Below, in pieces: positions 4,026 to 19,490 of a stretch of DNA of 64,000 nt. Position numbers and translations under genes: made by a program. Each line of letters starts with the position of its first letter. The first letter of the stretch is position 1. Origin of the DNA: Escherichia coli (GTDB lineage Bacteria > Pseudomonadota > Gammaproteobacteria > Enterobacterales > Enterobacteriaceae); assembly GCF_041248615.1 (NCBI RefSeq), contig NZ_CP158426.1, one strand, 5' to 3'. A model generated the notes under the pieces. It searched no databases and was not told the origin of the DNA. It was given only the letters and a program-made list of their open reading frames with translations.

Positions 4026-4234
4026 AGACAAATCCTTCGCCAAAATTAAAGGGGCATCTGTAAAACGAGGGATTATGCGCGGCAAATAAGAAGTGCGGAA
4101 ATAGCGAAATGCAAAATTATAACCTGCTGCACATTTTATTTTTAAACGAATAAAATTTGGAATAAAGCAAGTCAGATAGAAGAAACAAAAAAGCAGAGTG
4201 TGAAACAGTAAGTTCACACTCTGCTTGAATTCAT

Positions 4235-5383
4235 TTACACGTGAGCAACGGGTTTCGGCGTATGACCGGCGTTGCGAAGCAGCATCAGCAAATAGATAAA
4301 CGATACGCTGGCGATCATGATAAACAATAAATTATCGGAGAAATTCTGCATTAGCATGGCAGTAAATGACGGGCCAAGCAGACTTCCCACGGTATAGCTC
4401 AACAGTAAGGCCTGGTTCATCGCCACCAGTTGATGATGTTCAACTTTCTCGCAAGCCCATGCCATCGCCACCGGATATAGCGTAAAGCCAGCGGCACCGA
4501 GGATGAATAACGCTGGGGCCATCGCCGCCTGGCTAAGCATCGCGATACTGCCGAGAATGACGACAAAGACCTGAACACGCAACACCAGCAGTCGACCAAA
4601 CTTATCCGCCAGACGTCCAATCGGCCATTGTCCAAGGATACCCGCACTGACCAGTACCGCCATCCAGAAACCAATGCTGGCATTGCTCACCCCTTTGTGA
4701 TTGAGGTACAGCGGCATCAGGCCATATAGAGATCCCAGAACGATTCCTGAGATAATGCAGCCATTCACGCCAAGCCGCGCCTGACGGAGTTTTAGCATTG
4801 ACGTAATTGACGTCGAATCATGGTTTTCAGCCTGCTGATTCAGCACACGCGTAAACAACAGCGGTAAGATCCCTGCCAACGTCAAACCTGTAACCCACGG
4901 CAATACGGACATCAGCTCGGTTGAAACTTTGCTGACCAGTAACTGGCCTAAAAACGTTCCCACGTAATAAACCATCATATACGCAGCAAGCAAACGCCCA
5001 CGGTTACGTGACGTCCCACTGCACATCAGCGCGCTCTCAACAACCACCCAAATCATGGCACAGCCGACGCCGGCGACAAAACGCCAAGCCAACCAGCTCC
5101 AGAATCCAATCATCAGGCCAAGGCCGGCACAGCCAGCGGCAAAAATGAAGGAGGCCAGATAATAGCTGCGGTTAAAGCCAATGCGCTTAATGACATACCC
5201 TGTCAGCAATGTACCGACCAGGTTGCCGGTAAAATAGGATGAGCTGACAACACCTACCTGCCATGTGGACATGTGTTCCTGGGCGAGCCAAAGCGGCACG
5301 AGTGTATTTAACACTGCGATCGCCAGAGTCAACAAAAGCAGGCCAGACAGCAAAAGCATGACAGGCCGGGTATACGTGGACAT
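4235..5383 (-). CDS. ycaD: MFS transporter
   Basis: 382-aa multi-TM protein; position between ycaM and ycaC. Confidence 0.85.
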
Positions 5384-7851: not shown

Positions 7852-10296
7852 TTACACCTTTTCAACCTGAACAAGGTTTGTATGTGACGGATTCCCCTTA
7901 GCGAGAGGAGACGGACGTTGAGTGGTCAGTACGTTGATACAACCGCCCTTATCGACACGTTTTGCATCCGGGTCATACCAGGCACCTTCACCCAGTGCGA
8001 CCACACCCGGCATCATTCGTGGCGTCACTTTCGCCTCAATATGAACCTCACCACGATCGTTAAAGATCCTGACTTTATCGCCGTTGTTGATACCGCGTTT
8101 TTGTGCATCAAGCGGGTTGATCCACATTTCCTGACGGCAAGCTGCTTTCAGCACATCAACGTTGCCGTAAGTTGAGTGAACGCGAGATTTGTAGTGGAAG
8201 CCAGTAAGCTGCAGCGGATATTGTTTGTTCAGCGGATCCTGATAACTTTCAAAGCCCGGCGTATAGATCGGCAGTGGATCGATCACATCGCCTTCTGGCA
8301 ATTCCCAGGTCGCGGCAATGTCAGCCAGCGCCTGCGAATAAATCTCAATTTTACCCGATGGCGTGGTCAGTGGATTTGCCTGAGGATCTTCACGGAAAGC
8401 TTTATAAGCAACGTGGTGCCCTTGTGGGTCGCGCTTTTTAAAGATCCCCTGCTTGCGGAACTCTTCAAACGTTGGCAGTTCAGGAATCGCTTCCCGCGAC
8501 TGGGCATACAGATGCCGCATCCACTCTTCCTGTGTACGGCCTTCAGTAAACTGTTGCTCAACGCCAAGACGTTTTGCCAGTTCGCTGGTCATTTCATAGA
8601 TGGTCTTACATTCAAAGCGCGGTTTAATCACCTGATCGTTGAAAATCACGTAAGACATATTCCCGCAGGATGCATCCAGTGCAAAGTCCATCTGTTCGGA
8701 AGCGGTGCAGTCAGGCAGCAGGATGTCAGCATATTTCGCTGATGAGGTCATGTGGCAGTCGATAACCACAATCAGCTCGCACTTCTTATCATCCTGAAGG
8801 ATTTCATGGGTACGGTTGATTTCAGAATGCTGGTTAATCAGGCAGTTACCGGCATAGTTCCAGATCATTTTGATCGGCACATCCAGCTTATCTTTCCCGC
8901 GCACACCATCACGCAGCGCTGTCATTTCCGGGCCACGTTCAATGGCATCGGTCCACATAAACATCGAAATGCTGGTCTGGATCGGGTTTTCGAGGGTCGG
9001 CATACGGACAAACGGTAAGCTGTATGAACCTTCACGCGCGCCGCTGTTCCCCCCGTTAATACCAACGTTACCGGTCAGAATCGCCAGCATCGAGATAGCA
9101 CGGGTTGCGATTTCACCGTTAGCGTGACGCTGCGGGCCCCATCCCTGGCTGATAAACGCCGGTTTGGTACTGCCGATTTCACGAGCCAGTTTGATGATTT
9201 TGTCTGCCGGAACACCGGTGATTTGCGAGGCCCATTCCGGCGTTTTAGCCACGCCATCTGGCCCTTCACCCAGAATATAAGCTTTATAGTGACCATTTTT
9301 CGGCGCACTGGCTGGCAGTGTTTTCTCGTCGTAGCCAACGCAATATTTATCGAGGAATGCCTGATCCACCAGGTTTTCGGTGATCATGACATACGCCAGA
9401 CCGTTAACCAGTGCGGCATCTGTTCCCGGACGAATGGGGATCCACTCATCTTCGCGCCCGGCTCCGGTGTCGGTATAGCGCGGATCGATGATGATCATGC
9501 GAGCATTAGATTTCTGACGCGCCTGTTCAAGATAGTAAGTCACCCCACCGCCACTCATTCGCGTTTCGCCAGGGTTATTACCAAACAGCACTACCAGTTT
9601 ACTGTTTTCGATATCCGACGGGCTGTTACCATCTGCCCAGCCGCCGTAGGTATAGTTCAAACCTTCCGCAATTTGCGCGGAAGAGTAGTCACCGTAATGG
9701 TTCAGATAACCGCCGCAGCAGTTCATCAGGCGAGCGACCAGGGTATTTCCCGGCGGCCAGGAGCGGGTCATGGTGCCGCCCAGCGTACCGGTGCCATAGT
9801 TCAGATAGATAGACTCGTTGCCGTACTCTTTGATCAGGCGCTGCATATTGGTCGCGATGATGTCGTAGGCTTCTTCCCAGCTAATGCGCTCGAATTTGCC
9901 TTCACCGCGCGCCCCGACTCGTTTCATCGGATATTTCAGGCGGTCCGGATTGTAGACACGGCGACGCATGGAACGCCCACGCAGACAGGCGCGCACCTGG
10001 TGCAGGCCGTCATAGTTGTCATCGCCGGTATTATCCGTTTCAACATATTTAATTTCACCGTCCACAACGTGCATACGTAGCGGGCAGCGACTACCACAGT
10101 TAACTGTACAGGCGCTCCAGATAACCTTTTCGTCTGATTTTGTTGGAATGGCGCTATCGACAGCGTGCGCAATCCGACTAAAAGGTAATGTTAATGCGCT
10201 GCTGGCCATTGCCAGGCCGCCGATCGCTGTCGTTTTTACCAAACCACGGCGACTCACCTCAGCAGCCAATACCGCATCAGGGATTTTCGTTTTCAT
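7852..10296 (-). CDS. dmsA: DMSO reductase catalytic molybdopterin subunit
   Basis: 814 aa; N-terminal Tat signal (SRRGLVKTTAIGGLAMA); molybdopterin oxidoreductase architecture. Confidence 0.95.
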   Translation of the reverse strand: MKTKIPDAVLAAEVSRRGLVKTTAIGGLAMASSALTLPFSRIAHAVDSAIPTKSDEKVIWSACTVNCGSRCPLRMHVVDGEIKYVETDNTGDDNYDGLHQVRACLRGRSMRRRVYNPDRLKYPMKRVGARGEGKFERISWEEAYDIIATNMQRLIKEYGNESIYLNYGTGTLGGTMTRSWPPGNTLVARLMNCCGGYLNHYGDYSSAQIAEGLNYTYGGWADGNSPSDIENSKLVVLFGNNPGETRMSGGGVTYYLEQARQKSNARMIIIDPRYTDTGAGREDEWIPIRPGTDAALVNGLAYVMITENLVDQAFLDKYCVGYDEKTLPASAPKNGHYKAYILGEGPDGVAKTPEWASQITGVPADKIIKLAREIGSTKPAFISQGWGPQRHANGEIATRAISMLAILTGNVGINGGNSGAREGSYSLPFVRMPTLENPIQTSISMFMWTDAIERGPEMTALRDGVRGKDKLDVPIKMIWNYAGNCLINQHSEINRTHEILQDDKKCELIVVIDCHMTSSAKYADILLPDCTASEQMDFALDASCGNMSYVIFNDQVIKPRFECKTIYEMTSELAKRLGVEQQFTEGRTQEEWMRHLYAQSREAIPELPTFEEFRKQGIFKKRDPQGHHVAYKAFREDPQANPLTTPSGKIEIYSQALADIAATWELPEGDVIDPLPIYTPGFESYQDPLNKQYPLQLTGFHYKSRVHSTYGNVDVLKAACRQEMWINPLDAQKRGINNGDKVRIFNDRGEVHIEAKVTPRMMPGVVALGEGAWYDPDAKRVDKGGCINVLTTQRPSPLAKGNPSHTNLVQVEKV

Positions 10297-10466
10297 AATG
10301 GCTCACTCAAGCTTGCTCACGATTGATTCCAGTAACAAACCGTATTGTGTAATTATTTCTATAGCAGTTCGCTATATAGGCTTGTATACATCGAATAATT
10401 TGAAAATCAAAGAGATAGGTAGATTTTCACTCGAAAGTAGTATTACGTGTAAGTGAGGAGTAATTA

Positions 10467-10480
10467 TTGTTCGGTATCAA
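10467..10480 (-). promoter_or_regulatory. FNR-type site (TTGAT-N4-ATCAA class) in dmsA promoter region
   Basis: reverse complement reads TTGATACCGAACAA, about 170 bp upstream of dmsA ATG. Confidence 0.45.
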
Positions 10481-10491
10481 AGGGAGACAAA

Positions 10492-10506
10492 AAAAGCGCC
10501 CGCAGG
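10492..10506. repeat. attL core (direct repeat AAAAGCGCCCGCAGG)
   Basis: identical 15-mer at 50468-50482; GGTACTTA at 10516-10523 mirrors TAAGTACC at 50456-50463. Confidence 0.55.
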
Positions 10507-10592
10507 AGATTTAACGGTACTTACTCCTCTTGCTGATTTCCTTATTTTTCAATAAGTAAACAAAAACAAGGGGAGCAAATTATCACAAATAA

Positions 10593-11588
10593 TTACTGGT
10601 CGATGGACAGTTTATGGACACTTTCAGCCAGCGGATTAAAGCTGATCGCATCCTGTAAAAAGTCCGGTGAAAAATGCGCATACGTCATCGTTTGCTGAAT
10701 CGTGGCGTGACCCAGGATCCTCTGCAACGTGACGATGTTCCCGCCGTTCATCATGAAATGCGTGGCGAACGTGTGCCGCATGACATGCGTGGCCTGCCCT
10801 TTGGGTAAGTCGGGCTTCACCTCCTGAAGGATCTCCCTGAAACTGAGATAATCAACCTGATATAACAGGCCGGTCCGGCGGGTTTTAATTAACGGCACAA
10901 CGGAATCAGCTACAGGAACCGAGCGCGATTTCCCGTTCTTTGTGTTAAAGAACGTCACCCTGTTACCCACGATGTGTTCCCCGCGAAGCGTTGACGCCTC
11001 TTTCCATCTGGCCCCGGTCGAAAGGCACAGAATGGCAATGCGTCGTGCATCACCCTCAAGCCGTTTCAGAAGGCGATCAATCTCGTCATCTGAAAGAAAG
11101 GCCATTTCTGTATTCTGAACCTTGAGTTTACGTATTCCGCGCACAGGGTTTTCGTTATGATAAACCTCCGCGTCAATTAACAACGAAAACATCGCAGATA
11201 AGGCGCACAGGTCGCGATTGATACTGGACGGCATCAGTCCCGCCTGCAACTTATCCGAGCGATACTCAATCACGAATTTTCGTGTCATCTGGCTGGCGCG
11301 CGGGTCCCCCATTTCACGTATCACCTTCTCCAGTCTGGTTCTGTAGGTATCACCATATGCCTGATTACGACCATCAAGCATCCACCACACCTCAATCAGT
11401 TCTGATAACCGCCGTTGATCGGCGGGCCTTGCCTGCCACGGGTTATTGTGGAAATTCTGAAGAACGTATCTTTCGAATTCCTGCGCCTTTGATTTCAGGG
11501 TGAAAATCTTACGAATCCGCCTTCCTCCCGCCCCCTGAGGCCTTACATCAACCTGATAACGTCCGTCTTTGAGTTGCTTAATCGACAT
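10593..11588 (-). CDS. int: P2-type tyrosine integrase
   Basis: 331 aa from ATG with SD GGAGGTG; N-terminus MSIKQLKDGRYQVDVRP and C-terminal HxLRHxFAT...Y catalytic region; resemblance to P2 Int is from memory. Confidence 0.9.
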   Translation of the reverse strand: MSIKQLKDGRYQVDVRPQGAGGRRIRKIFTLKSKAQEFERYVLQNFHNNPWQARPADQRRLSELIEVWWMLDGRNQAYGDTYRTRLEKVIREMGDPRASQMTRKFVIEYRSDKLQAGLMPSSINRDLCALSAMFSLLIDAEVYHNENPVRGIRKLKVQNTEMAFLSDDEIDRLLKRLEGDARRIAILCLSTGARWKEASTLRGEHIVGNRVTFFNTKNGKSRSVPVADSVVPLIKTRRTGLLYQVDYLSFREILQEVKPDLPKGQATHVMRHTFATHFMMNGGNIVTLQRILGHATIQQTMTYAHFSPDFLQDAISFNPLAESVHKLSIDQ

Positions 11589-11657
11589 GATCAGCACCTC
11601 CGACGGATAAACCTGTTAACCCCTGCTTACTGAACGCCGCCCGTTCAATATACAGCG

Positions 11658-11999
11658 TCAGCCAGCATTGCGGCCTGATTGGGGTGATTTTTGGGTATTG
11701 CGGGTTGAAACCTGATCGTCCTCCGACTGCGTGGAGCCATCAAGAGAGAGAGCCGGGGCGATCTGACCGGCAACAGGTAGCGTCTTATCTTTGATTAGCC
11801 AGAACATATATTTTTCAAACCGATCCACTTGAAGGACGGCCTCAACAATCTTTGCTCTGGCGATCTTTTGCCCTGACTCATAATTCCTGACAGTTGCCAG
11901 AGATAACCCTGTAATATCAGCAAATTGCTTTTGAGTTAGCCCTTCCGTCTTGCGTATCAAACGCAACTTTTTCGCATAGTCTATTGACAAGATACTCAT
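11658..11999 (-). CDS. P2 C-type immunity repressor (HTH)
   Basis: 113 aa; HTH near N-terminus; C-terminal GQIAPAL motif recalled from P2 C; divergent from cox-like gene. Confidence 0.8.
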   Translation of the reverse strand: MSILSIDYAKKLRLIRKTEGLTQKQFADITGLSLATVRNYESGQKIARAKIVEAVLQVDRFEKYMFWLIKDKTLPVAGQIAPALSLDGSTQSEDDQVSTRNTQKSPQSGRNAG

Positions 12000-12102: not shown

Positions 12103-12624
12103 ATGCGGGAGATTATTGCCGACAAAGAGTTATCTGGCGCTCAACCGGTTCAGGATGATGGCGCGGACAATGAATTCATTGAAGCTGCCAACGACAACGA
12201 ACACCTGGAAACCAAAACCAGACCGTCCTACAAAAAGGGCGCAACCCTACGACTGGACGGCCCAGTCGCAGGACTTGTGTCACTGGAAAAAGGGGCTGCC
12301 TATCTGGGGGTAACAAAATCTGCGCTACGCGCCGCCATTCAGCGCGGGCAGATGCCGGGTCACAAAACGCGCTCAAATCCCGAAGATGAAAAGTCAGACG
12401 GTACATGGTGGTTTAACGCCAAAGCCTGGGACGAACTAGCCGACGAACTACTGGAGTGCGAACCGCCAGAGTGGCACAACTGGAAAAGCTACTGGACGTA
12501 CGACCGCAAGAAAAGAAAGTTTTCACCGGCAAACAAGGAGGACTGCCAGACCGTTAAAGGTAAGCAGGTTTACTCCCCCAGAGTTTCAAAACTGGAGCAA
12601 CTCAAAAACAACCAGCCCGGCTAA
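12103..12624 (+). CDS. Cox/excisionase-like DNA-binding protein (early operon first gene)
   Basis: 173-aa ORF with SD GAGGAT; divergent from repressor. Confidence 0.55.
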   Translation: MREIIADKELSGAQPVQDDGADNEFIEAANDNEHLETKTRPSYKKGATLRLDGPVAGLVSLEKGAAYLGVTKSALRAAIQRGQMPGHKTRSNPEDEKSDGTWWFNAKAWDELADELLECEPPEWHNWKSYWTYDRKKRKFSPANKEDCQTVKGKQVYSPRVSKLEQLKNNQPG

Positions 12625-14636: not shown

Positions 14637-14675
14637 CGGGAACATGGCGAGCGTCAGATGACACACGCAGGGCAC

Positions 14676-15158
14676 TTATCGGGAAAAACCGATCGTAATG
14701 GCAGCCATCATCTTTTCAGCGAAAGAGAGAGATTCACGATGACTGATATTCAGAGACATACAGGCTTTGTTGTACGCCACATTTTCCATGCATTCCAGGA
14801 CAGGAGAGTCATGCATCTCAAGCTCTGGAAGGCGTGCCAGCAGAGCTTCCGTACTGAGGAGGGCGCTTTTGGTAATCAACTCATTGTAGCGATGGGCATG
14901 CTCACTCGCCGCCTGCGCACGTTGCCCGAAACGACATATGAAATTACAGGCTCCGAGAACCACCACCACTGCCCCAAGCACCCAGCCGAAATGCCAGCCG
15001 GCTACGATGAACGCACCCGCCGCAAGGATCAAAATGTTGATGATCGCATCAAGGCGACGATTGAATACCGCCGCGATGCGCTCCAGCCAGTAGCTGTACC
15101 AGAGACGGAACATGACCTCATCCCGTTCTCTCGATTTTTTACGTTGGTTGTTTTGCAT
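14676..15158 (-). CDS. 2-TM membrane protein, opposite strand to early operon (candidate exclusion/abortive-infection protein)
   Basis: 160 aa; SD GAGGGA; two TM helices then soluble domain; host-like codon usage, unlike the overlapping plus-strand ORF. Confidence 0.6.
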   Translation of the reverse strand: MQNNQRKKSRERDEVMFRLWYSYWLERIAAVFNRRLDAIINILILAAGAFIVAGWHFGWVLGAVVVVLGACNFICRFGQRAQAASEHAHRYNELITKSALLSTEALLARLPELEMHDSPVLECMENVAYNKACMSLNISHRESLSFAEKMMAAITIGFSR

Positions 15159-15392
15159 GGTGTTTTATCCCTCATCGTCATCGCTCTGCCCCTAATCAGC
15201 GCAGAGTGCAGGGTAACCTGGCTCGTGGAATTTTTGCAGCCAGACATCTTTACCCCCGGGCGTGTTGAACAAAGTGTCCGCCAGATCCACTGAACGGCGG
15301 ATTCATCAATGCTAACACGCCCTTCTTTTCCGGTTGAAGGCGAAAAAACCGGACCATTACCCCGACACAAAACAGAACAACGGAGAACAACT

Positions 15393-15947
15393 ATGCCCGC
15401 ACTTAAACCTATGGGTGTATCAGGTGTACCACCGAAGCATGTCAGAGCCTGGACACAACAGGAAGATGCTCTACTGGTCGGTTTATACCCCTCCCACACC
15501 GTACCAGAACTGACAAAACACTTTCAGAGAACCGGGCCAGCAATACGAAGCCGCATCCGTCTTTTGCTCTCTCAGGGGGTTATCCACACCAAACAACCCC
15601 CCCTGAATACAAAAGAACTCAACACGCTCATCAGGAATCGCCACACAAAAACCATCCGGGAACTCGCGAATGAACTGGGGCGCTCGACATCCACGGTGGG
15701 ACTGAACCTGAGAAAAAGAGGGTACCGGTTCAGGAAATACGGGGAACTCCACCACAGAGCCAGATACAGCGATCACCTGGTGGAGTTGGTAACTGAACTG
15801 CGCGATGAACAGGGGATGACATTCAGCGAAATCAGAAAGTACATCCGGGACATGGCCGGGATATCCCTTAAAAGATGGGTCCTCGCCCGGCTTTACGCAC
15901 GATATACCGCCGCTGACACCGTGCTTTGCGAACTGCTACCGGACTGA
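15393..15947 (+). CDS. HTH/Myb-like DNA-binding protein
   Basis: 184 aa from ATG with SD GGAG; W-x2-EDALLVGLY Myb/SANT-like segment; divergent from the membrane-protein gene. Confidence 0.55.
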   Translation: MPALKPMGVSGVPPKHVRAWTQQEDALLVGLYPSHTVPELTKHFQRTGPAIRSRIRLLLSQGVIHTKQPPLNTKELNTLIRNRHTKTIRELANELGRSTSTVGLNLRKRGYRFRKYGELHHRARYSDHLVELVTELRDEQGMTFSEIRKYIRDMAGISLKRWVLARLYARYTAADTVLCELLPD

Positions 15948-16174
15948 GTAACCACTATGCACACACAAAAAAACCGCTTGCCATGCCGCAATCAGTCAGG
16001 TTACATTTCCGCTGCACCTCATAAAACGGGTGCCGGGATTGCAACCCCCGCTGACAACTACAGCGCACAACCGCGCCAGCGGTTTTTTTGTGCGTACCGT
16101 ATCGCCACGTCTTTTTCGCGCCAGAATTATGGCGGGGCGTATGGGGCCGACTTCGGTCGGGCCGGTTTCTGTAG

Positions 16175-16242
16175 TTGCCGGTGGTTGCAACCCTGTACGT
16201 CTCGCCACCCAGAATTGCAACCTCTGGATGGTGAGTTTTCAA
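16175..16242. promoter_or_regulatory. three phased TTGCAAC(C) boxes; a fourth copy at 16029-16036
   Basis: TTGCAA palindromic cores at 16175, 16205, 16236 (30-31 bp apart), upstream of ORF 16268. Confidence 0.35.
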
Positions 16243-16267
16243 AACTTGCAACTACAGAGGCCACACC

Positions 16268-16492
16268 ATGGCAAACCGCAAACAACAGCGCGCATACGCT
16301 GCGCGTCGTCACATCCAGACTGAAATCAACCGCAGACTTTTCCGCGCATTCCGCGTCGCGCATATCATGCACATCAATATGCTGCATGAGCGCAGCCACG
16401 CACTGTCAAACATGTATTCCGCCGCTGTATTCAGCTACCTGGCGGATGACCTGCGCGAGCTGCAGGACCTCATTAACCAGCACCACCACTAA
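16268..16492 (+). CDS. small basic protein (hypothetical)
   Basis: 74 aa; SD AGAGG; basic N-terminus. Confidence 0.45.
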   Translation: MANRKQQRAYAARRHIQTEINRRLFRAFRVAHIMHINMLHERSHALSNMYSAAVFSYLADDLRELQDLINQHHH

Positions 16493-16560
16493 TCAACATC
16501 CCGGAGCCATCCCGCCCCCGTACGCGGGAGGCTTCCGCACGTCCGTTTCCGGAGGTTCTC

Positions 16561-16974
16561 ATGAAGAGCGTTAAGGGACTTTCAGATATTCAGGATTTTT
16601 TTAACTGGATGTGGGCGGTGGATCCACGCCTCGCTTCCCGTCTCAATGACCTGCACGACTATTACCGCCGCGCCTGTAAACAGGCAGCCCGCAGCGCTGC
16701 CACATACGGGGATTTTTCCTTCACCGTTGACGACCGTTACCGCGTGGATGTCAGAGACCAGAACCACAGCCTGGAGCTGGGCCTGTTCCACATCAACGGG
16801 TGCGACAGCAGCGTTATCAGCTGGTCATCGTCAGAAATGGTGCTCGTTCTGGAAATGACCACCCACAGCGTGGTCGTGAAAGGGATTAAAACAGCAGAAG
16901 ACTTTATCGCTGAATACCAGCGCCTTCTTGTGCTGTACCGGGCTGCATTTCAGAAGGCAACAGCAGGGGAGTAA
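16561..16974 (+). CDS. hypothetical protein upstream of gpA
   Basis: 137 aa; SD GGAGG; 5 bp before gpA. Confidence 0.6.
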   Translation: MKSVKGLSDIQDFFNWMWAVDPRLASRLNDLHDYYRRACKQAARSAATYGDFSFTVDDRYRVDVRDQNHSLELGLFHINGCDSSVISWSSSEMVLVLEMTTHSVVVKGIKTAEDFIAEYQRLLVLYRAAFQKATAGE

Positions 16975-16979
16975 GCGGA

Positions 16980-19490
16980 ATGAGCCATCACCACACGCAC
17001 CTGGCGTACCCGTGGAACGCCCCGCTGCCGGTTATTGATCCTGAGACATTCGGCAGAGCATTACCGCAGAAGCCAACCGCATTACAACGGGCAATCCGTG
17101 ACTACCTCACCGAAGACATTCGCACTGAGGCCCGGCTGGATGAAGAAACCGTGGCCTTCCTGACAACCACGGACAAAGGTAAGCAAATTAATTCACACCT
17201 TCACCGGGACGAAGAGCGGCAGATAAGGCTGGATAAGCTGGCACGACACAGACGCGAAAATCCGCCAACGGCGGTATCGGAGGCGATAGCCGAACTTCGC
17301 ACCCTGCCCTCGTTTCTTGCCAGTGTGTTGATCCGTGATCTGGCACGACTGAACCGGAAACAGCAAAGTGCCCGCAGTGAAGGTGTAAAAAACAACAGCG
17401 CATACGTGGCCGATAATTTCGTTCGCCGTGGACTGCGTGCGCGCCTGAAACGTATTGAAAGGGTTAACGACCGCTTTGCAACGCCGGCATTCAAAACCAC
17501 CGTCGTGCGCCATCGCCTTGAAGAACTGCTCACACTGCCGCAACTCACCCGTGACGAAATCCAGCGCATCGCCACACTGACAGCCCAGGCATTCGCCGCA
17601 GAATTTGAACGCATATGTGATGAAGTTCTTGAACGGACAGGCAAGGATAATGACAGCCCGGTTATCTGGCTGCTGGCCTACCAGAAGGTGGCACGCACAG
17701 CCTTAATTCTGGGCATGGTCCCGCCATACTGGCCGGAACTCGAAATCAGGCACAACCGACGCACACCGCCGGACCCTGAACGGGTTCCGGGTGCGGTACT
17801 GCGCATCACCTGCGCGACCTGGTGGAACAACCAGTTACGCCACGTCGCCGATCTCTGGCGGGAGGAGTTACTGCGCGCCGCCGGCAGAGTGTCACGTAAA
17901 CAATCCCCCTATATCAGCCATGAGTCACTACTGGAGTTCCGCGAGAAGCGCCAGCGCACCTGTGACTTTCTCAAAAGCTGGGATATTGAAAACGAAGACG
18001 GCGAGCGCCTGAGTCTGGAGGACGTGTACTGGGCTGGCCTGGGTAATCCACGCAACCGCCGCAATGAAATGATGGTCTGCGTCAGAGGGATGGAGATGGT
18101 GGCCGAATTACGGGCTGACGTCGCATTCTTCATCACAGTAACCACCCCTTCCCGCTTTCACAGCGTGAACGAGAACGGCAGCCTGAACCCGAAATACAAC
18201 GGTGCCACAGTACGAGATGCCAGTGATTATCTGGTTTACGACTTCTTCGCAGCCGTAAGAAAAAAAATAAAAAAAGAGGGGCTGGGCTGGTACGGCGTGC
18301 GAACCGCTGAGCCACACCATGACGGCACGCCACACTGGCATATGCTGGTATTCACTTCCCCGGAGAACGCAGAGCGCATCATCGAAATTATGCGCGAAGC
18401 AGCAATTAAATCAGATCGCCACGAACTGGGGGACGATATTTCACCGCGCTTTAAATGCGAGAAGATAGACCCGGAAAAAGGCACACCGGCAAGCTATATC
18501 GCAACCTATATCGGTAAGAACCTGGACGCCAGCGCTTTCCACAACAATGATCCGAAAACCGGAAAACCTTACGTTGATGAGGAATCCGGGAAAACCATGG
18601 CGGAAACCGTGGAGAACGCCATTGCCTGGGCAAGCCTTCACCGCATCCGTCAGTTCCAGTTTTTCGGCATTCCGCCCCGCCAGGTATGGCGTGAACTCCG
18701 CCGCCTTGCAAGCCAGATGGAGCGCAACCCGGCATCACCGAAGCACCTCGATCATGACGATATTGACGCCATTATGGCTGCCGCAGATGTGGGATGTTTT
18801 GCCACCTACATCATGAAACAGGGTGGTGTGCTCATTCCGCGCAACCAGTATCTGGTCCGCACCGCATACGAAACCGCAGACGAAGCCAACGACTACGGTG
18901 AATTCCCTCAACGTATCTACGGAATCTGCGCCCCGTCGCTCGGAGAGCGGTACACCATATGCACCCATCCGGACGAGTGGAAACTGGTTAAAAAAGAAAC
19001 AACACCAGACAACCGCACGGGCGAGGGTTTTGACCTTCATGGCGACCCCGTCGCCCCTTGGACTCGTGGCAATAACTGTCCCCGGGATGAAAAAACAGAC
19101 AATCACGGACCAGAAAACAGGCAGGACCCCGGACGACTGACGCTTCCCGAAGAGAACCTGGAAAGCTGGCTGAATACGTTAAGCAGGGGCGATCGGAGAA
19201 AACTGCGTAATCAGATTAAAAATCAGCCGTCGGGCGCAAAAACCGGACAAAACGACACCACACCGGCATCTGACACCCCTGTAAGGGTGGGGATTGTCGT
19301 GCCTGCGGATACCGCGACGGACACGCAAATCGCCCGCGAACTTGATGCGCTGGGTGTGCAGTTGCCTGACGCGGCCATCATCTCCGTGCGTAACGGTGCC
19401 CGTGTGCGTCTGGATAACGGGGGAACAGCGTACTGGGATGAGTCAGCCCGTCACATCATCACAGAGCAGCCAGTGGAGGCGGGAGCATGA
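16980..19490 (+). CDS. rolling-circle replication initiator (P2 gpA-like)
   Basis: 836 aa; HUH-type motif HHDGTPHWHMLVF; size and position match P2 gene A. Confidence 0.9.
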   Translation: MSHHHTHLAYPWNAPLPVIDPETFGRALPQKPTALQRAIRDYLTEDIRTEARLDEETVAFLTTTDKGKQINSHLHRDEERQIRLDKLARHRRENPPTAVSEAIAELRTLPSFLASVLIRDLARLNRKQQSARSEGVKNNSAYVADNFVRRGLRARLKRIERVNDRFATPAFKTTVVRHRLEELLTLPQLTRDEIQRIATLTAQAFAAEFERICDEVLERTGKDNDSPVIWLLAYQKVARTALILGMVPPYWPELEIRHNRRTPPDPERVPGAVLRITCATWWNNQLRHVADLWREELLRAAGRVSRKQSPYISHESLLEFREKRQRTCDFLKSWDIENEDGERLSLEDVYWAGLGNPRNRRNEMMVCVRGMEMVAELRADVAFFITVTTPSRFHSVNENGSLNPKYNGATVRDASDYLVYDFFAAVRKKIKKEGLGWYGVRTAEPHHDGTPHWHMLVFTSPENAERIIEIMREAAIKSDRHELGDDISPRFKCEKIDPEKGTPASYIATYIGKNLDASAFHNNDPKTGKPYVDEESGKTMAETVENAIAWASLHRIRQFQFFGIPPRQVWRELRRLASQMERNPASPKHLDHDDIDAIMAAADVGCFATYIMKQGGVLIPRNQYLVRTAYETADEANDYGEFPQRIYGICAPSLGERYTICTHPDEWKLVKKETTPDNRTGEGFDLHGDPVAPWTRGNNCPRDEKTDNHGPENRQDPGRLTLPEENLESWLNTLSRGDRRKLRNQIKNQPSGAKTGQNDTTPASDTPVRVGIVVPADTATDTQIARELDALGVQLPDAAIISVRNGARVRLDNGGTAYWDESARHIITEQPVEAGA

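Follow-up and report, generated by a model that had tools for sequence, protein, structure and literature searches.

C4-type RNAs are called CI RNA in the P4 literature, and IsrK-like small RNAs (sRNAs) go by the names seqA or a1b1 RNA in work on P4 and P1. The founding member of the C4 family (Rfam RF01695) is the immI region of phages P1 and P7, with c4, icd and ant (review PMC12197685; Citron & Schuster 1990). In P1, a processed RNA of ~77 nt keeps the anti-repressor off by pairing, through its elements a' and b', with targets named a2 and b2 at a ribosome-binding site; further copies, a1 and b1, lie upstream, and heteroimmunity specificity comes from a few bases in a and b. The P1 target ORF is icd, followed by ant, and c4 forms a second immunity layer beside a protein repressor. 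P1 is not known to have an IsrK-type terminated sRNA matching RF01394.

The immunity region of the satellite P4 (PLE, seqA, CI RNA/seqB, seqC, epsilon, orf151, alpha) also encodes an antisense RNA with target copies up- and downstream of it. A third system, in the lambdoid Salmonella prophage Gifsy-1, comprises isrK, STnc1160/orf45 and anrP. There, a1:a' pairing was proven by the compensatory mutations G28A/C162U and G31A/C159U, and the authors ascribed regulation to translation of orf45 through C4, not to a trans-acting C4 (PMC4825925). A structurally similar RNA-based system, in which a small processed CA RNA controls the anti-repressor gene antC, is cited for the phage-plasmid N15 in PMC3632133; its phage type and anti-repressor differ from those described below.

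We analysed a gap upstream of the replication genes of an Escherichia coli prophage, within a window of 64 kb (the window being the whole stretch of DNA examined, 64,000 nt). A preliminary description had put the gap at ~300 bp and called it non-coding. It is non-coding, and measures ~320 bp (15948-16267) between ORF 15309-15947 and ORF 16268-16492. The long ORFs called across it are shadow ORFs, as had been suspected: RefSeq has no CDS there, and the region differs among close relatives by indels of lengths not divisible by three, some of them between C4 and the start codon of the next gene. The view of the gap as a regulatory region for the genes leading into the gpA module also holds. We conclude that it is very probably a two-RNA immunity/anti-repressor switch of the P1 c4, P4 CI and Gifsy-1 IsrK type. 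Its elements, all on the + strand, are as follows.

15978-16007, + strand: predicted sigma-70 promoter of the IsrK-like RNA (-35 TTGCCA at 15978-15983, 18-bp spacer, -10 TACATT at 16002-16007).
16014-16090, + strand: IsrK-like sRNA with a pair of hairpins at its 5' end, then a linker and an intrinsic terminator (Rfam match 16014-16089).
16039-16046, + strand: a1, identical with box 1, UUGCAACC, on the loop of the second IsrK hairpin; complement of the C4 element a'.
16055-16063, + strand: b1, CAACUACAG, within the linker/loop of IsrK; complement of b' in the C4 loop.
16069-16090, + strand: predicted IsrK intrinsic terminator, AACCGC-GCCA-GCGGUU followed by U7; matches the terminator hairpin of the isrK model.
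16125-16212, + strand: C4-type antisense RNA with a 17-bp closing stem, a UUCG hairpin, a hairpin with b' in its loop, and a' in a single-stranded junction.
16166-16177, + strand: b', loop UUUCUGUAGUUG of the second C4 hairpin; has b1 and b2 as its complements.
16183-16192, + strand: a', GGUUGCAACC, a 10-nt palindrome in the C4 junction that contains box 2; complementary to a1 and a2.
16215-16222, + strand: a2, identical with box 3, UUGCAACC, 3 nt past the C4 match; first target on the mRNA leader.
16248-16260, + strand: b2, GCAACUACAGAGG, overlapped by box 4 (16246-16252); includes the Shine-Dalgarno sequence AGAGG (16256-16260) of ORF 16268.
16268-16492, + strand: epsilon-like 'derepression protein' gene, 74 aa; proposed direct translational target of C4.
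16561-16974, + strand: ORF of 137 aa (ORF137), phrog_3237; probably subject to polarity.
16980-19490, + strand: replication endonuclease of the gpA type, 836 aa; would be the last gene under control of the switch.

The upstream RNA was assigned to Rfam family RF01394 (isrK) over the full model (positions 1-77 of 77) with 60.1 bits (gathering score 50), and the z-score of its fold was -2.84. The c4-a1b1 model RF03163 gave no match at E <= 1 in 15800-16600, with scores of 44.1 for P4 and 48.1 for Gifsy-1; this is no argument against an a1b1 function, because the isrK model covers the same element. The predicted promoter is the sole promoter-like site in 15700-16700, matches the consensus at nine of 12 positions, and has both hexamers kept in P88-like relatives. 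From its placement, and because position 1 of the isrK model aligns at 16014, transcription is predicted to start at ~16014. Promoter-like and terminator-like sites predicted at suitable places around the IsrK-like RNA are kept in relatives, and the short stem of the terminator makes partial read-through plausible. By eye, we found no LexA box near the promoter (15950-16030). A sigma-54 promoter at the boxes (GG-N10-GC, with TTGCA as -12 element) was considered and rejected, as inspection by eye found no GG at the required distance.

The second RNA matched RF01695 over the whole model (positions 1-87 of 87) with 80.1 bits against a gathering score of 45 (E = 4.5e-14 in the 64-kb window). Its minimum-free-energy fold is the family consensus (z = -3.77), and the predicted folds as a whole reproduce the family structures, leaving a', b' and a1 unpaired. 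Across 99 loci, pairing in the internal C4 helices amounted to 86-100%, and compensatory changes were numerous. A stem resembling that of a tRNA acceptor, with CCCA after it (16208-16211), and the lack of a separate predicted promoter are suggestive of an RNA excised from a longer precursor, with RNase P probably forming the 5' end and trimming the 3' end. For c4, processing by RNase P is credited to Hartmann et al. 1995 in PMC4919922.

In the preliminary description, attention had been drawn to four TTGCAAC boxes in the gap. The boxes exist, but all four positions given (16029, 16175, 16205 and 16236) were 10 too low: an exact motif scan of the window places their starts on the + strand at 16039, 16185, 16215 and 16246. 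The spacing of 30 and 31 nt between the last three was correct. A terminator-like hairpin is present as well, at 16069-16084 with a T-run to ~16090 rather than at 16053-16079, and the internal promoter has a sigma-70-like candidate, which lies at 15978-16007, upstream of the boxes and not among them. Counted on both strands of the window, TTGCAAC shows no enrichment (10 found vs 16.1 expected). The cluster itself is non-random, with four same-strand copies within 220 bp and more than two copies in none of 500 mononucleotide shuffles. A second repeat had been overlooked: CAACTACAG occurs on the + strand at 16055 and 16249 and as its reverse complement at 16169, and the rest of the 64 kb is free of it.

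Boxes 1, 2 and 3 coincide with a1, a' and a2, and box 4 with the 5' part of b2; every one of them falls within a defined element that is single-stranded, either in an Rfam-matched RNA or in its target. They are most likely RNA pairing sites rather than protein-binding DNA sites. They look like direct repeats only because the a' allele of this locus is palindromic. The palindromic type is rare, with two of ~50 distinct a' sequences. The reading first offered took them as sites in duplex DNA, phased at three helical turns, that serve as operators of an internal promoter or as replication iterons and are bound by the products of gpA, ORF 16268 or ORF 16561. Four same-strand copies within 214 bp, at 30- and 31-bp spacing and directly upstream of replication genes, would fit such a role, as would the palindromic TTGCAA core, which resembles many operator half-sites. 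In P2, however, nicking at the origin takes place within gene A instead of upstream.

We assessed complementarity with an alignment-free test, in which perfect complements (7 nt or longer) of a locus's own a' or b' were compared with those of an a' or b' from a swapped locus, for 106 distinct C4 loci comprising 34 different a' and 49 different b' sequences. A complement of a' was present downstream (a2) for 96% of own vs 2.3% of swapped combinations, and upstream (a1) for 95% vs 6.3%. For b', the corresponding values were 83% vs 5% downstream (b2) and 77% vs 4.4% upstream (b1). Judged by these sequence comparisons, the property conserved among the sites is reverse-complementarity, not sequence identity. 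Column-based covariation over the whole structure was 0.366 vs 0.172 for shuffled data (99 loci), a value reached by none of 500 shuffles. Column-wise, the intermolecular helices were only 46-71% paired in the MAFFT alignment of the 99 loci, which we attribute to register shifts between subfamilies; for this reason we relied on the own-vs-swapped test. We also considered whether the spacer of 35-50 nt that precedes C4 forms a conserved alternative helix with the 5' strand of the closing stem, and rejected this, as own and swapped loci scored alike (7.5 vs 7.0).

Close relatives gave the same picture. When P88-like loci were aligned, the scaffold was conserved and changes were concentrated in the a and b elements, each of which varied in concert at its three sites. 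Three loci (L027, L103 and L111) show such concerted changes of b1, b' and b2. At the box positions, L103 and L116 have TTCTCAAC/GTTGAGAA and L111 has TTCGCAG/CTGCGAA instead of TTGCAAC. Absence of the boxes from related phages, which had been named beforehand as evidence against DNA sites, is thus what is seen in close P88-like relatives. In L027, box 4 is missing and the b' allele is CUUCGUUUG instead of the CUGUAGUUG found here, even though its C and Cox are identical (100%) to those of this prophage and its gpA is 99.6% identical. L036, conversely, keeps the same boxes despite a gpA of ~61% identity, diverged C and Cox, and the lack of an ORF 16561 homologue. Complementarity is kept where identity is not, and the boxes sit in unpaired elements of Rfam-matched RNAs. 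These comparative data largely refute the interpretation as duplex-DNA sites, which we regard as extremely improbable.

The pairing of C4 with the two downstream targets was examined at the level of single bases. Between a' (16183-16190) and a2 (16215-16222), 8 bp can form; the duplex energy by itself is unremarkable (-16.4 kcal/mol, with 27 of 500 shuffles as low). Read from the sequence, b2 (16248-16260) forms 11 Watson-Crick and two G-U pairs with the b' loop; between 16166-16177 and 16249-16260 there are 12 pairs, two of them G-U. The Shine-Dalgarno sequence AGAGG lies within the pairing. The energy of this duplex is -30 kcal/mol, vs -16.1 +/- 3.1 for shuffles, none of which (0/500) was as low. 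In 97 of 118 loci an ORF starts between a few bases before and 17 nt past the end of b2, typically at 2-13 nt, and the ATG column is almost invariant across 99 loci.

We propose the following mechanism. Transcription from the promoter at 15978-16007 would start at ~16014, and the majority of transcripts would end at the terminator (16069-16090), yielding a 77-nt IsrK-like RNA that displays a1 and b1. Transcripts that read through would carry the C4-like RNA (~16130-16209), probably released by RNase P and 3' trimming, which would present b' in a hairpin loop and a' in the junction. These elements would find their partners, a2 and b2, in transcripts of the same family and, because b2 contains its Shine-Dalgarno sequence, block translation of the epsilon-like gene. 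Through polarity (Rho-dependent termination or decay), ORF 16561 and gpA would then probably be silent in the lysogen. Since no intrinsic terminator was predicted downstream of b2, control of gpA would have to rest on Rho-dependent polarity. The a1 and b1 elements of IsrK would act as a decoy that competes for C4, and this competition would set a threshold for expression, or activate it.

Gifsy-1 and this locus have their layout in common: IsrK, C4, a2, a hairpin, b2 with the Shine-Dalgarno sequence, and ATG follow each other with nearly identical spacing, the C4 closing stem is almost identical, the downstream gene encodes an anti-repressor-like protein, and the mutated positions of the published compensatory pairs map exactly onto a1:a'. 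Differences are that Gifsy-1 is lambdoid, that its downstream protein is unrelated to epsilon, that its orf45 stop overlaps the anrP start, an arrangement absent here, and that its a and b sequences (UUGGCGU and AUCACCG) are unlike those in the window. The experiments in this homologous locus (PMC4825925) support another mode of action. In it, the read-through transcript is the regulated mRNA, an ORF from the conserved AUG at 16129 must be translated, and the C4 fold and a cis pairing of a1b1 with a'b' are alternative mRNA structures that hide this AUG at the 5' edge of C4. The short IsrK would be an activator in trans, and the module would serve mainly for inducible activation rather than for repression by processed C4. 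Both in-frame AUGs (16129 and 16141) are kept in the window, and a1b1 is paired in cis with a'b' in the minimum-free-energy structure of the precursor. Against this stand several properties of the present locus and its relatives. The frame here is 64 codons long and extends to 16323, so that 55 nt of it are shared with the epsilon-like gene. Coupling as published requires an AUGA stop/start overlap, which just two of 75 loci have, and relatives differ between C4 and the start codon by the indels mentioned above. Moreover, the epsilon-like gene has its own Shine-Dalgarno sequence under b2, and a processed RNA of ~80 nt (STnc1160) is present in Gifsy-1 too. Regulation by translation through C4 is possible for this prophage, but we consider it rather unlikely.

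Gene content links the locus with P4. Both Rfam families are present in P4 (isrK at 8615-8692, C4 at 8420-8507), with order and strand as in the window, and the P4 order of isrK/seqA, CI/C4, seqC, epsilon, an ORF (orf151) and the replication gene alpha is the layout found here. Target copies lie up- and downstream of the antisense RNA in P4 as in the window, and the same holds for the upstream a1 and b1 copies of P1, a phage of a family unrelated to that of this prophage. ORF 16268 is named 'derepression protein' in RefSeq; it scored barely above the cutoff of Pfam PF25738 (Derepression; 27.2 vs 27.0 bits). The score of P4 epsilon on this family is 170 bits, and the two proteins have 29% identity (E = 1e-7). 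Judged by this family match, the putative target gene of C4 here is of the anti-repressor/derepression type. ORF 16561 showed no similarity to P4 orf151, and the replication genes differ, being a gpA rolling-circle endonuclease here (Pfam Phage_GPA, E = 1.3e-103; phrog_91, nicking at the origin) and the primase-helicase alpha in P4. C4 and epsilon are 56 nt apart here vs ~245 nt in P4, and the specificities of P4 (a' AUUCUCACC, b' CUGUGAAG) are not those of the window. We rejected identity with a P4-like satellite: replication depends on a gene of the gpA type, the element as a whole is P88-like, and the immunity/epsilon cassette is all that it has in common with P4. Cross-specificity between P88-like phages and P4-like satellites was unsupported, as no full (a,b) combination was common to the gpA and alpha classes in 122 sampled loci.

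The matching gene order would also fit a different primary output. According to two publications (PMC4825925, PMC3632133), P4 immunity is brought about by CI-dependent premature termination. By this model, C4 would mainly terminate transcription of the replication genes (gpA here, alpha in P4), and control of the epsilon-like gene would be incidental. However, no terminator is predictable downstream of b2, the gene following b2 in most other loci is of the anti-repressor type rather than a replication gene, and the early operon is already under a P2-type C/Cox switch. Genes found after C4 in other loci encode Rha, AntA/AntB, proteins with the P22 anti-repressor N-domain, and epsilon-like proteins. 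We hold a main role in termination as a tentative alternative; it is compatible with the translational block proposed above and does not exclude it.

The prophage element is P88-like and belongs to the P2 family; P88 is an inducible P2-like phage of 35.8 kb (PMC5285337). In contrast to the satellite P4, the element is a full-size phage with its own C/Cox switch. Its repressor (11658-11999) is a homologue of P2 C (35% identity, E = 2e-24), the known target class of P4 epsilon (PMC8628076), so the epsilon-like protein might act on the prophage's own repressor. The IsrK/C4 cassette is lacking in the prototypes P2, 186 and Fels-2. The absence of any RNA annotation at the locus could suggest a decaying remnant, i.e., an inherited RNA cassette that is non-functional in this prophage. 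This is very improbable, as nothing is damaged in the six pairing elements, the hexamers of the promoter, the terminator, or the Shine-Dalgarno sequence and ATG, and the concerted allele changes between relatives, which preserve complementarity, imply selection. Furthermore, no fewer than 12 complete E. coli genomes have identical copies, and ~1150 of 5426 (about one fifth) have homologues with a query coverage of 80% or more; strains 135, F11 and TUM9803 are examples of carriers of this prophage.

As in P1, where c4 stands beside a protein repressor, the RNA switch here would add a layer to a protein-based one. It is conceivable, though rather doubtful, that P88-like phages have a P1-style two-layer immunity, in which an IsrK/C4 lock on gpA and on an epsilon-type anti-repressor directed at their own P2-C-like repressor complements C/Cox. 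The a/b pairing alleles reassort independently of C/Cox and gpA among relatives and, if this were true, would create heteroimmunity groups at the RNA level. That the cassette is common with P4 satellites, in which it serves helper derepression, suggests that P4 acquired the module from a helper lineage or shares it with one; under the same assumption, it may play a part in conflicts of P2-like prophages with satellites residing in the same cell. The arrangement, with a P4/Gifsy-1-type IsrK-C4 switch and a P4-epsilon-like anti-repressor gene directly before a P2-family replication gene, offers a testable route to the induction of P88-like phages and to the origin of the satellite derepression module.

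The type of RNA immunity switch is already known; what is new is an unannotated instance in a P2-like E. coli prophage. The case also illustrates that a palindromic pairing allele can disguise RNA-RNA target sites as phased DNA repeats, and that conservation of identity vs complementarity in relatives separates the two. For P88-like prophages, GenBank and RefSeq records omit both RNAs of the cassette, which on the sequence evidence is real and probably functional, and the record of P88 has a CDS over the cassette that is probably spurious.

A scan of the whole window with Rfam at gathering thresholds placed two adjacent matches in the gap, both on the plus strand. The two RNAs belong to the isrK and C4 families and have the family folds, which were recovered by independent folding. 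The IsrK fold (z = -2.84) carries UUGCAACC in the loop of hairpin 2. The C4 fold (z = -3.77) consists of a 17-bp closing stem, a UUCG hairpin and a second hairpin with a 12-nt loop, UUUCUGUAGUUG, and leaves the junction GGUUGCAA unpaired. The start predicted from the only sigma-70-like promoter found in 15700-16700 lies at ~16014 and coincides with position 1 of the isrK model. In the c4 family, unpaired a' and b' elements pair with a2 and b2 downstream and with a1 and b1 upstream. These elements are listed below together with boxes 1-4, the TTGCAAC copies reported in a preliminary description made from the sequence alone.

Features of the RNA cassette
15978-16007, plus strand: predicted sigma-70-like promoter, TTGCCA-18-TACATT
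16014-16089, plus strand: isrK (RF01394), 60.1 bits against a gathering threshold of 50
16039-16046, plus strand: a1, UUGCAACC; box 1, IsrK hairpin-2 loop
16055-16063, plus strand: b1, CAACUACAG; IsrK linker, missed in the preliminary description
16069-16090, plus strand: terminator, equal to the terminator hairpin of the isrK model
16125-16212, plus strand: C4 antisense RNA (RF01695), 80.1 bits against a gathering threshold of 45
16166-16177, plus strand: b', UUUCUGUAGUUG; C4 hairpin-2 loop, likewise missed
16183-16192, plus strand: a', GGUUGCAACC; box 2, C4 junction
16215-16222, plus strand: a2, UUGCAACC; box 3, 3 nt past C4
16248-16260, plus strand: b2, GCAACUACAGAGG; 5' part is box 4, in the leader over the Shine-Dalgarno sequence

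The four TTGCAAC copies do exist on the plus strand, and the 30- and 31-nt spacings between the last three had been given correctly. Their true starts are 16039, 16185, 16215 and 16246, the earlier positions being 10 too low; the terminator, also real, had been placed too low as well (16069-16084 plus a T-run). TTGCAAC is not enriched over both strands of the whole window (10 matches vs. 16.1 expected), and its clustering is non-random, since no shuffle out of 500 placed three or more copies on the same strand within 220 bp. The copy at 16185 is enclosed by a perfect 10-nt palindrome, GGTTGCAACC (16183-16192). Because a' is palindromic, a1, a' and a2 read alike on one strand and were therefore first seen as direct repeats. 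Box 4 qualifies as a box only in part, with its TTGC shared by a small hairpin and the start of b2. A second repeat, CAACTACAG, overlooked at first, was found at 16055 and 16249 and as its reverse complement at 16169, and nowhere else in the 64-kb window. The self-complementary a' could allow pairing between C4 molecules, and likewise a1 could pair with a2. Such palindromes are rare among a' alleles, at 2 of about 50 distinct sequences.

This P88-like prophage (Xuanwuvirus, Peduoviridae) shows 92% identity to phage P88 across the region. Copies with 100% identity were present in 12 or more complete E. coli genomes, and homologues with at least 80% query coverage in about 1150 of 5426 genomes. 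Cox is followed by early genes, the RNA cassette, the epsilon-like gene, the 137-aa ORF and gpA.

Prophage genes
10593-11597, minus strand: integrase, prophage left end
11658-11999, minus strand: P2-C-like repressor (C), 35% identity to P2 C, E = 2e-24
12103-12624, plus strand: Cox, prophage left end
16268-16492, plus strand: epsilon-like ORF, 74 aa, Pfam 'Derepression' (PF25738), 27.2 bits (cutoff 27.0)
ORF 16561, after the epsilon-like ORF: 137 aa, phrog_3237
gpA, after ORF 16561: replication endonuclease, Phage_GPA, E = 1e-103

Both C4 and isrK were matched in P88, and neither in P2, 186 or Fels-2. Neither RefSeq nor the GenBank entry for P88 annotates an RNA in the gap region; what this P2-family prophage carries is a member of a known RNA-immunity family that has escaped annotation. 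The P88 record has a minus-strand hypothetical CDS exactly over the two RNAs (KP063541 5033-5221, corresponding to 4056-4244 of our P88 contig, L002), which is probably spurious; the E. coli records in RefSeq have no annotation at this place. In the early operon, ORFs 14658-15293 (plus) and 14676-15158 (minus) overlap on opposite strands. RefSeq picks the latter (hypothetical protein) though all neighbours are on the plus strand; the former had no match in Pfam or PHROG.

The cassette resembles that of P4, where the same two families occur in the same order and are followed by epsilon, orf151 and alpha; IsrK is the counterpart of seqA and C4 that of the CI RNA (PMC4825925, PMC3632133). Both c4 and c4-a1b1 were catalogued in 2010 as widespread in Proteobacteria and phages (PMC2864571). 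Gifsy-1 also has this layout, with an almost identical C4 closing stem and an anti-repressor-like gene 55 nt past C4. Its published compensatory mutations, G28A/C162U and G31A/C159U (PMC4825925), fall exactly on Gifsy-1 a1 (nt 26-32) and a' (nt 158-164), so the homologue of the box 1 : box 2 pairing is experimentally established.

We then asked whether loci conserve sequence identity or complementary pairing. Searching viral contigs for the invariant C4 core as a pattern yielded 120 loci, 106 of them distinct after duplicate removal; among the latter there are 34 a' and 49 b' sequence variants. About half of the C4 sampling consisted of P4-like satellites: of ~122 viral contigs, 57 carried an alpha-type primase, seven gpA (P88-like) and 58 neither within the fetched flank. 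Complements of at least 7 nt were sought with each locus's own elements and with elements swapped from other loci. For a', they were found within 120 nt downstream in 96% of own vs. 2.3% of swapped cases, and upstream in 95% vs. 6.3%; for b', the rates were 83% vs. 5% downstream and 77% vs. 4.4% upstream. The six pairing elements covary. Whole-structure covariation, as a column-based count over 99 aligned loci, was 0.366 vs. 0.172 for shuffled data, a value reached in 0 of 500 shuffles. In this MAFFT alignment internal C4 helices were 86-100% paired and intermolecular helices only 46-71%, because the register shifts between subfamilies.

Close P88-like relatives share a near-identical scaffold, and differences cluster in the a and b elements, each varying in concert across its three sites. 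The window and contig L036 share a = TTGCAACC and b = CAACTACAG; L027 has the same a with b = CAAACGAAG; L103 and L116 have a = TTCTCAAC and a' = GTTGAGAA; and L111 has a = TTCGCAG and a' = CTGCGAA. P88-like relatives without TTGCAAC boxes thus keep the complementarity. L027 lacks box 4, with C and Cox 100% and gpA 99.6% identical to those of the window, and L036, which shares the alleles of the window, is only 64% identical in C, 70% in Cox and about 61% in gpA and, by protein comparison, has no homologue of ORF 16561. The boxes are therefore dissociated from any candidate binding protein. The suggestion that they are phased DNA boxes or iterons is essentially excluded, as it is complementarity and not TTGCAAC that is conserved and the P2 origin sits within gene A. 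In these loci the a and b specificity alleles reassort without regard to one another or to the flanking proteins, which points to mosaic exchange and possibly to RNA-level heteroimmunity groups.

The b2 element occludes the ribosome-binding site of the epsilon-like gene. The b':b2 duplex (11 Watson-Crick and two G-U pairs; -30 kcal/mol vs. -16.1 ± 3.1 for shuffled targets) takes in the Shine-Dalgarno sequence AGAGG (16256-16260) of ATG 16268. Across C4 loci b2 terminates in GGAG or AGAGG, the ATG column is nearly invariant (99-locus alignment), and in 97 of 118 loci an ORF starts between a few bases before and 17 nt past the b2 end (typically 2-13 nt). The c4 RNAs are usually associated with anti-repressors, and at other loci the genes following b2 encode, among others, Rha, AntA/AntB, the P22 anti-repressor N-domain and epsilon-like proteins. 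In 40 loci a small protein ORF directly follows b2; its 57-aa representative (contig L003) had no Pfam match. The product of ORF 16268-16492, named 'derepression protein' in RefSeq, shares 29% identity with P4 epsilon (E = 1e-7), which itself scores 170 bits on PF25738.

In line with what is known of P1, P4 and Gifsy-1, we propose that transcription would begin from 15978-16007 and that partial termination at 16069-16090 would allow some readthrough. A C4 RNA of about 80 nt would be freed by RNase P and 3' trimming, and its binding to a2 and b2 would leave the epsilon-like gene untranslated; ORF 16561 and gpA would be silenced by Rho-dependent polarity or decay, and IsrK (a1b1) would act as competitor or activator. 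P4-style termination control of gpA would be compatible with this scheme. More tentatively, the epsilon-like protein may inactivate the phage's own P2-C-like repressor, which would make the cassette a second layer of immunity gated by RNA, comparable to that of P1. Coupling of an ORF from a conserved AUG at the C4 5' edge to the downstream gene, as in the Gifsy-1 'orf45' model, is a possible alternative to occlusion by C4: the orf45 start corresponds to AUG 16129, and another AUG follows in frame at 16141. The 64-codon frame from 16129, however, crosses C4 and stops at 16323, 55 nt into the epsilon-like gene; indels in relatives shift the frame, and only two of 75 loci show the overlapping AUGA stop/start known from Gifsy-1.

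Just past a2, the segment CUGGAUGGUGAG (16224-16235) complements the 3' strand of the stem that closes C4, CUCGCCACCCAG (16200-16211). In the minimum-free-energy structure of the precursor the two form a hairpin with a2 in its loop, perhaps an alternative fold of the transcript before processing. Such complementarity also occurs in L025, L039, L107 and other loci, with a mean longest pairing of 8.4 nt (own) vs. 6.8 nt (swapped) and pairings of at least 8 nt in 69% vs. 32%. Finally, the enterobacterial sRNA STnc130 was matched in Rfam at full length (125.8 bits) at 10387-10521, just outside the integrase gene and near the presumed attachment site.
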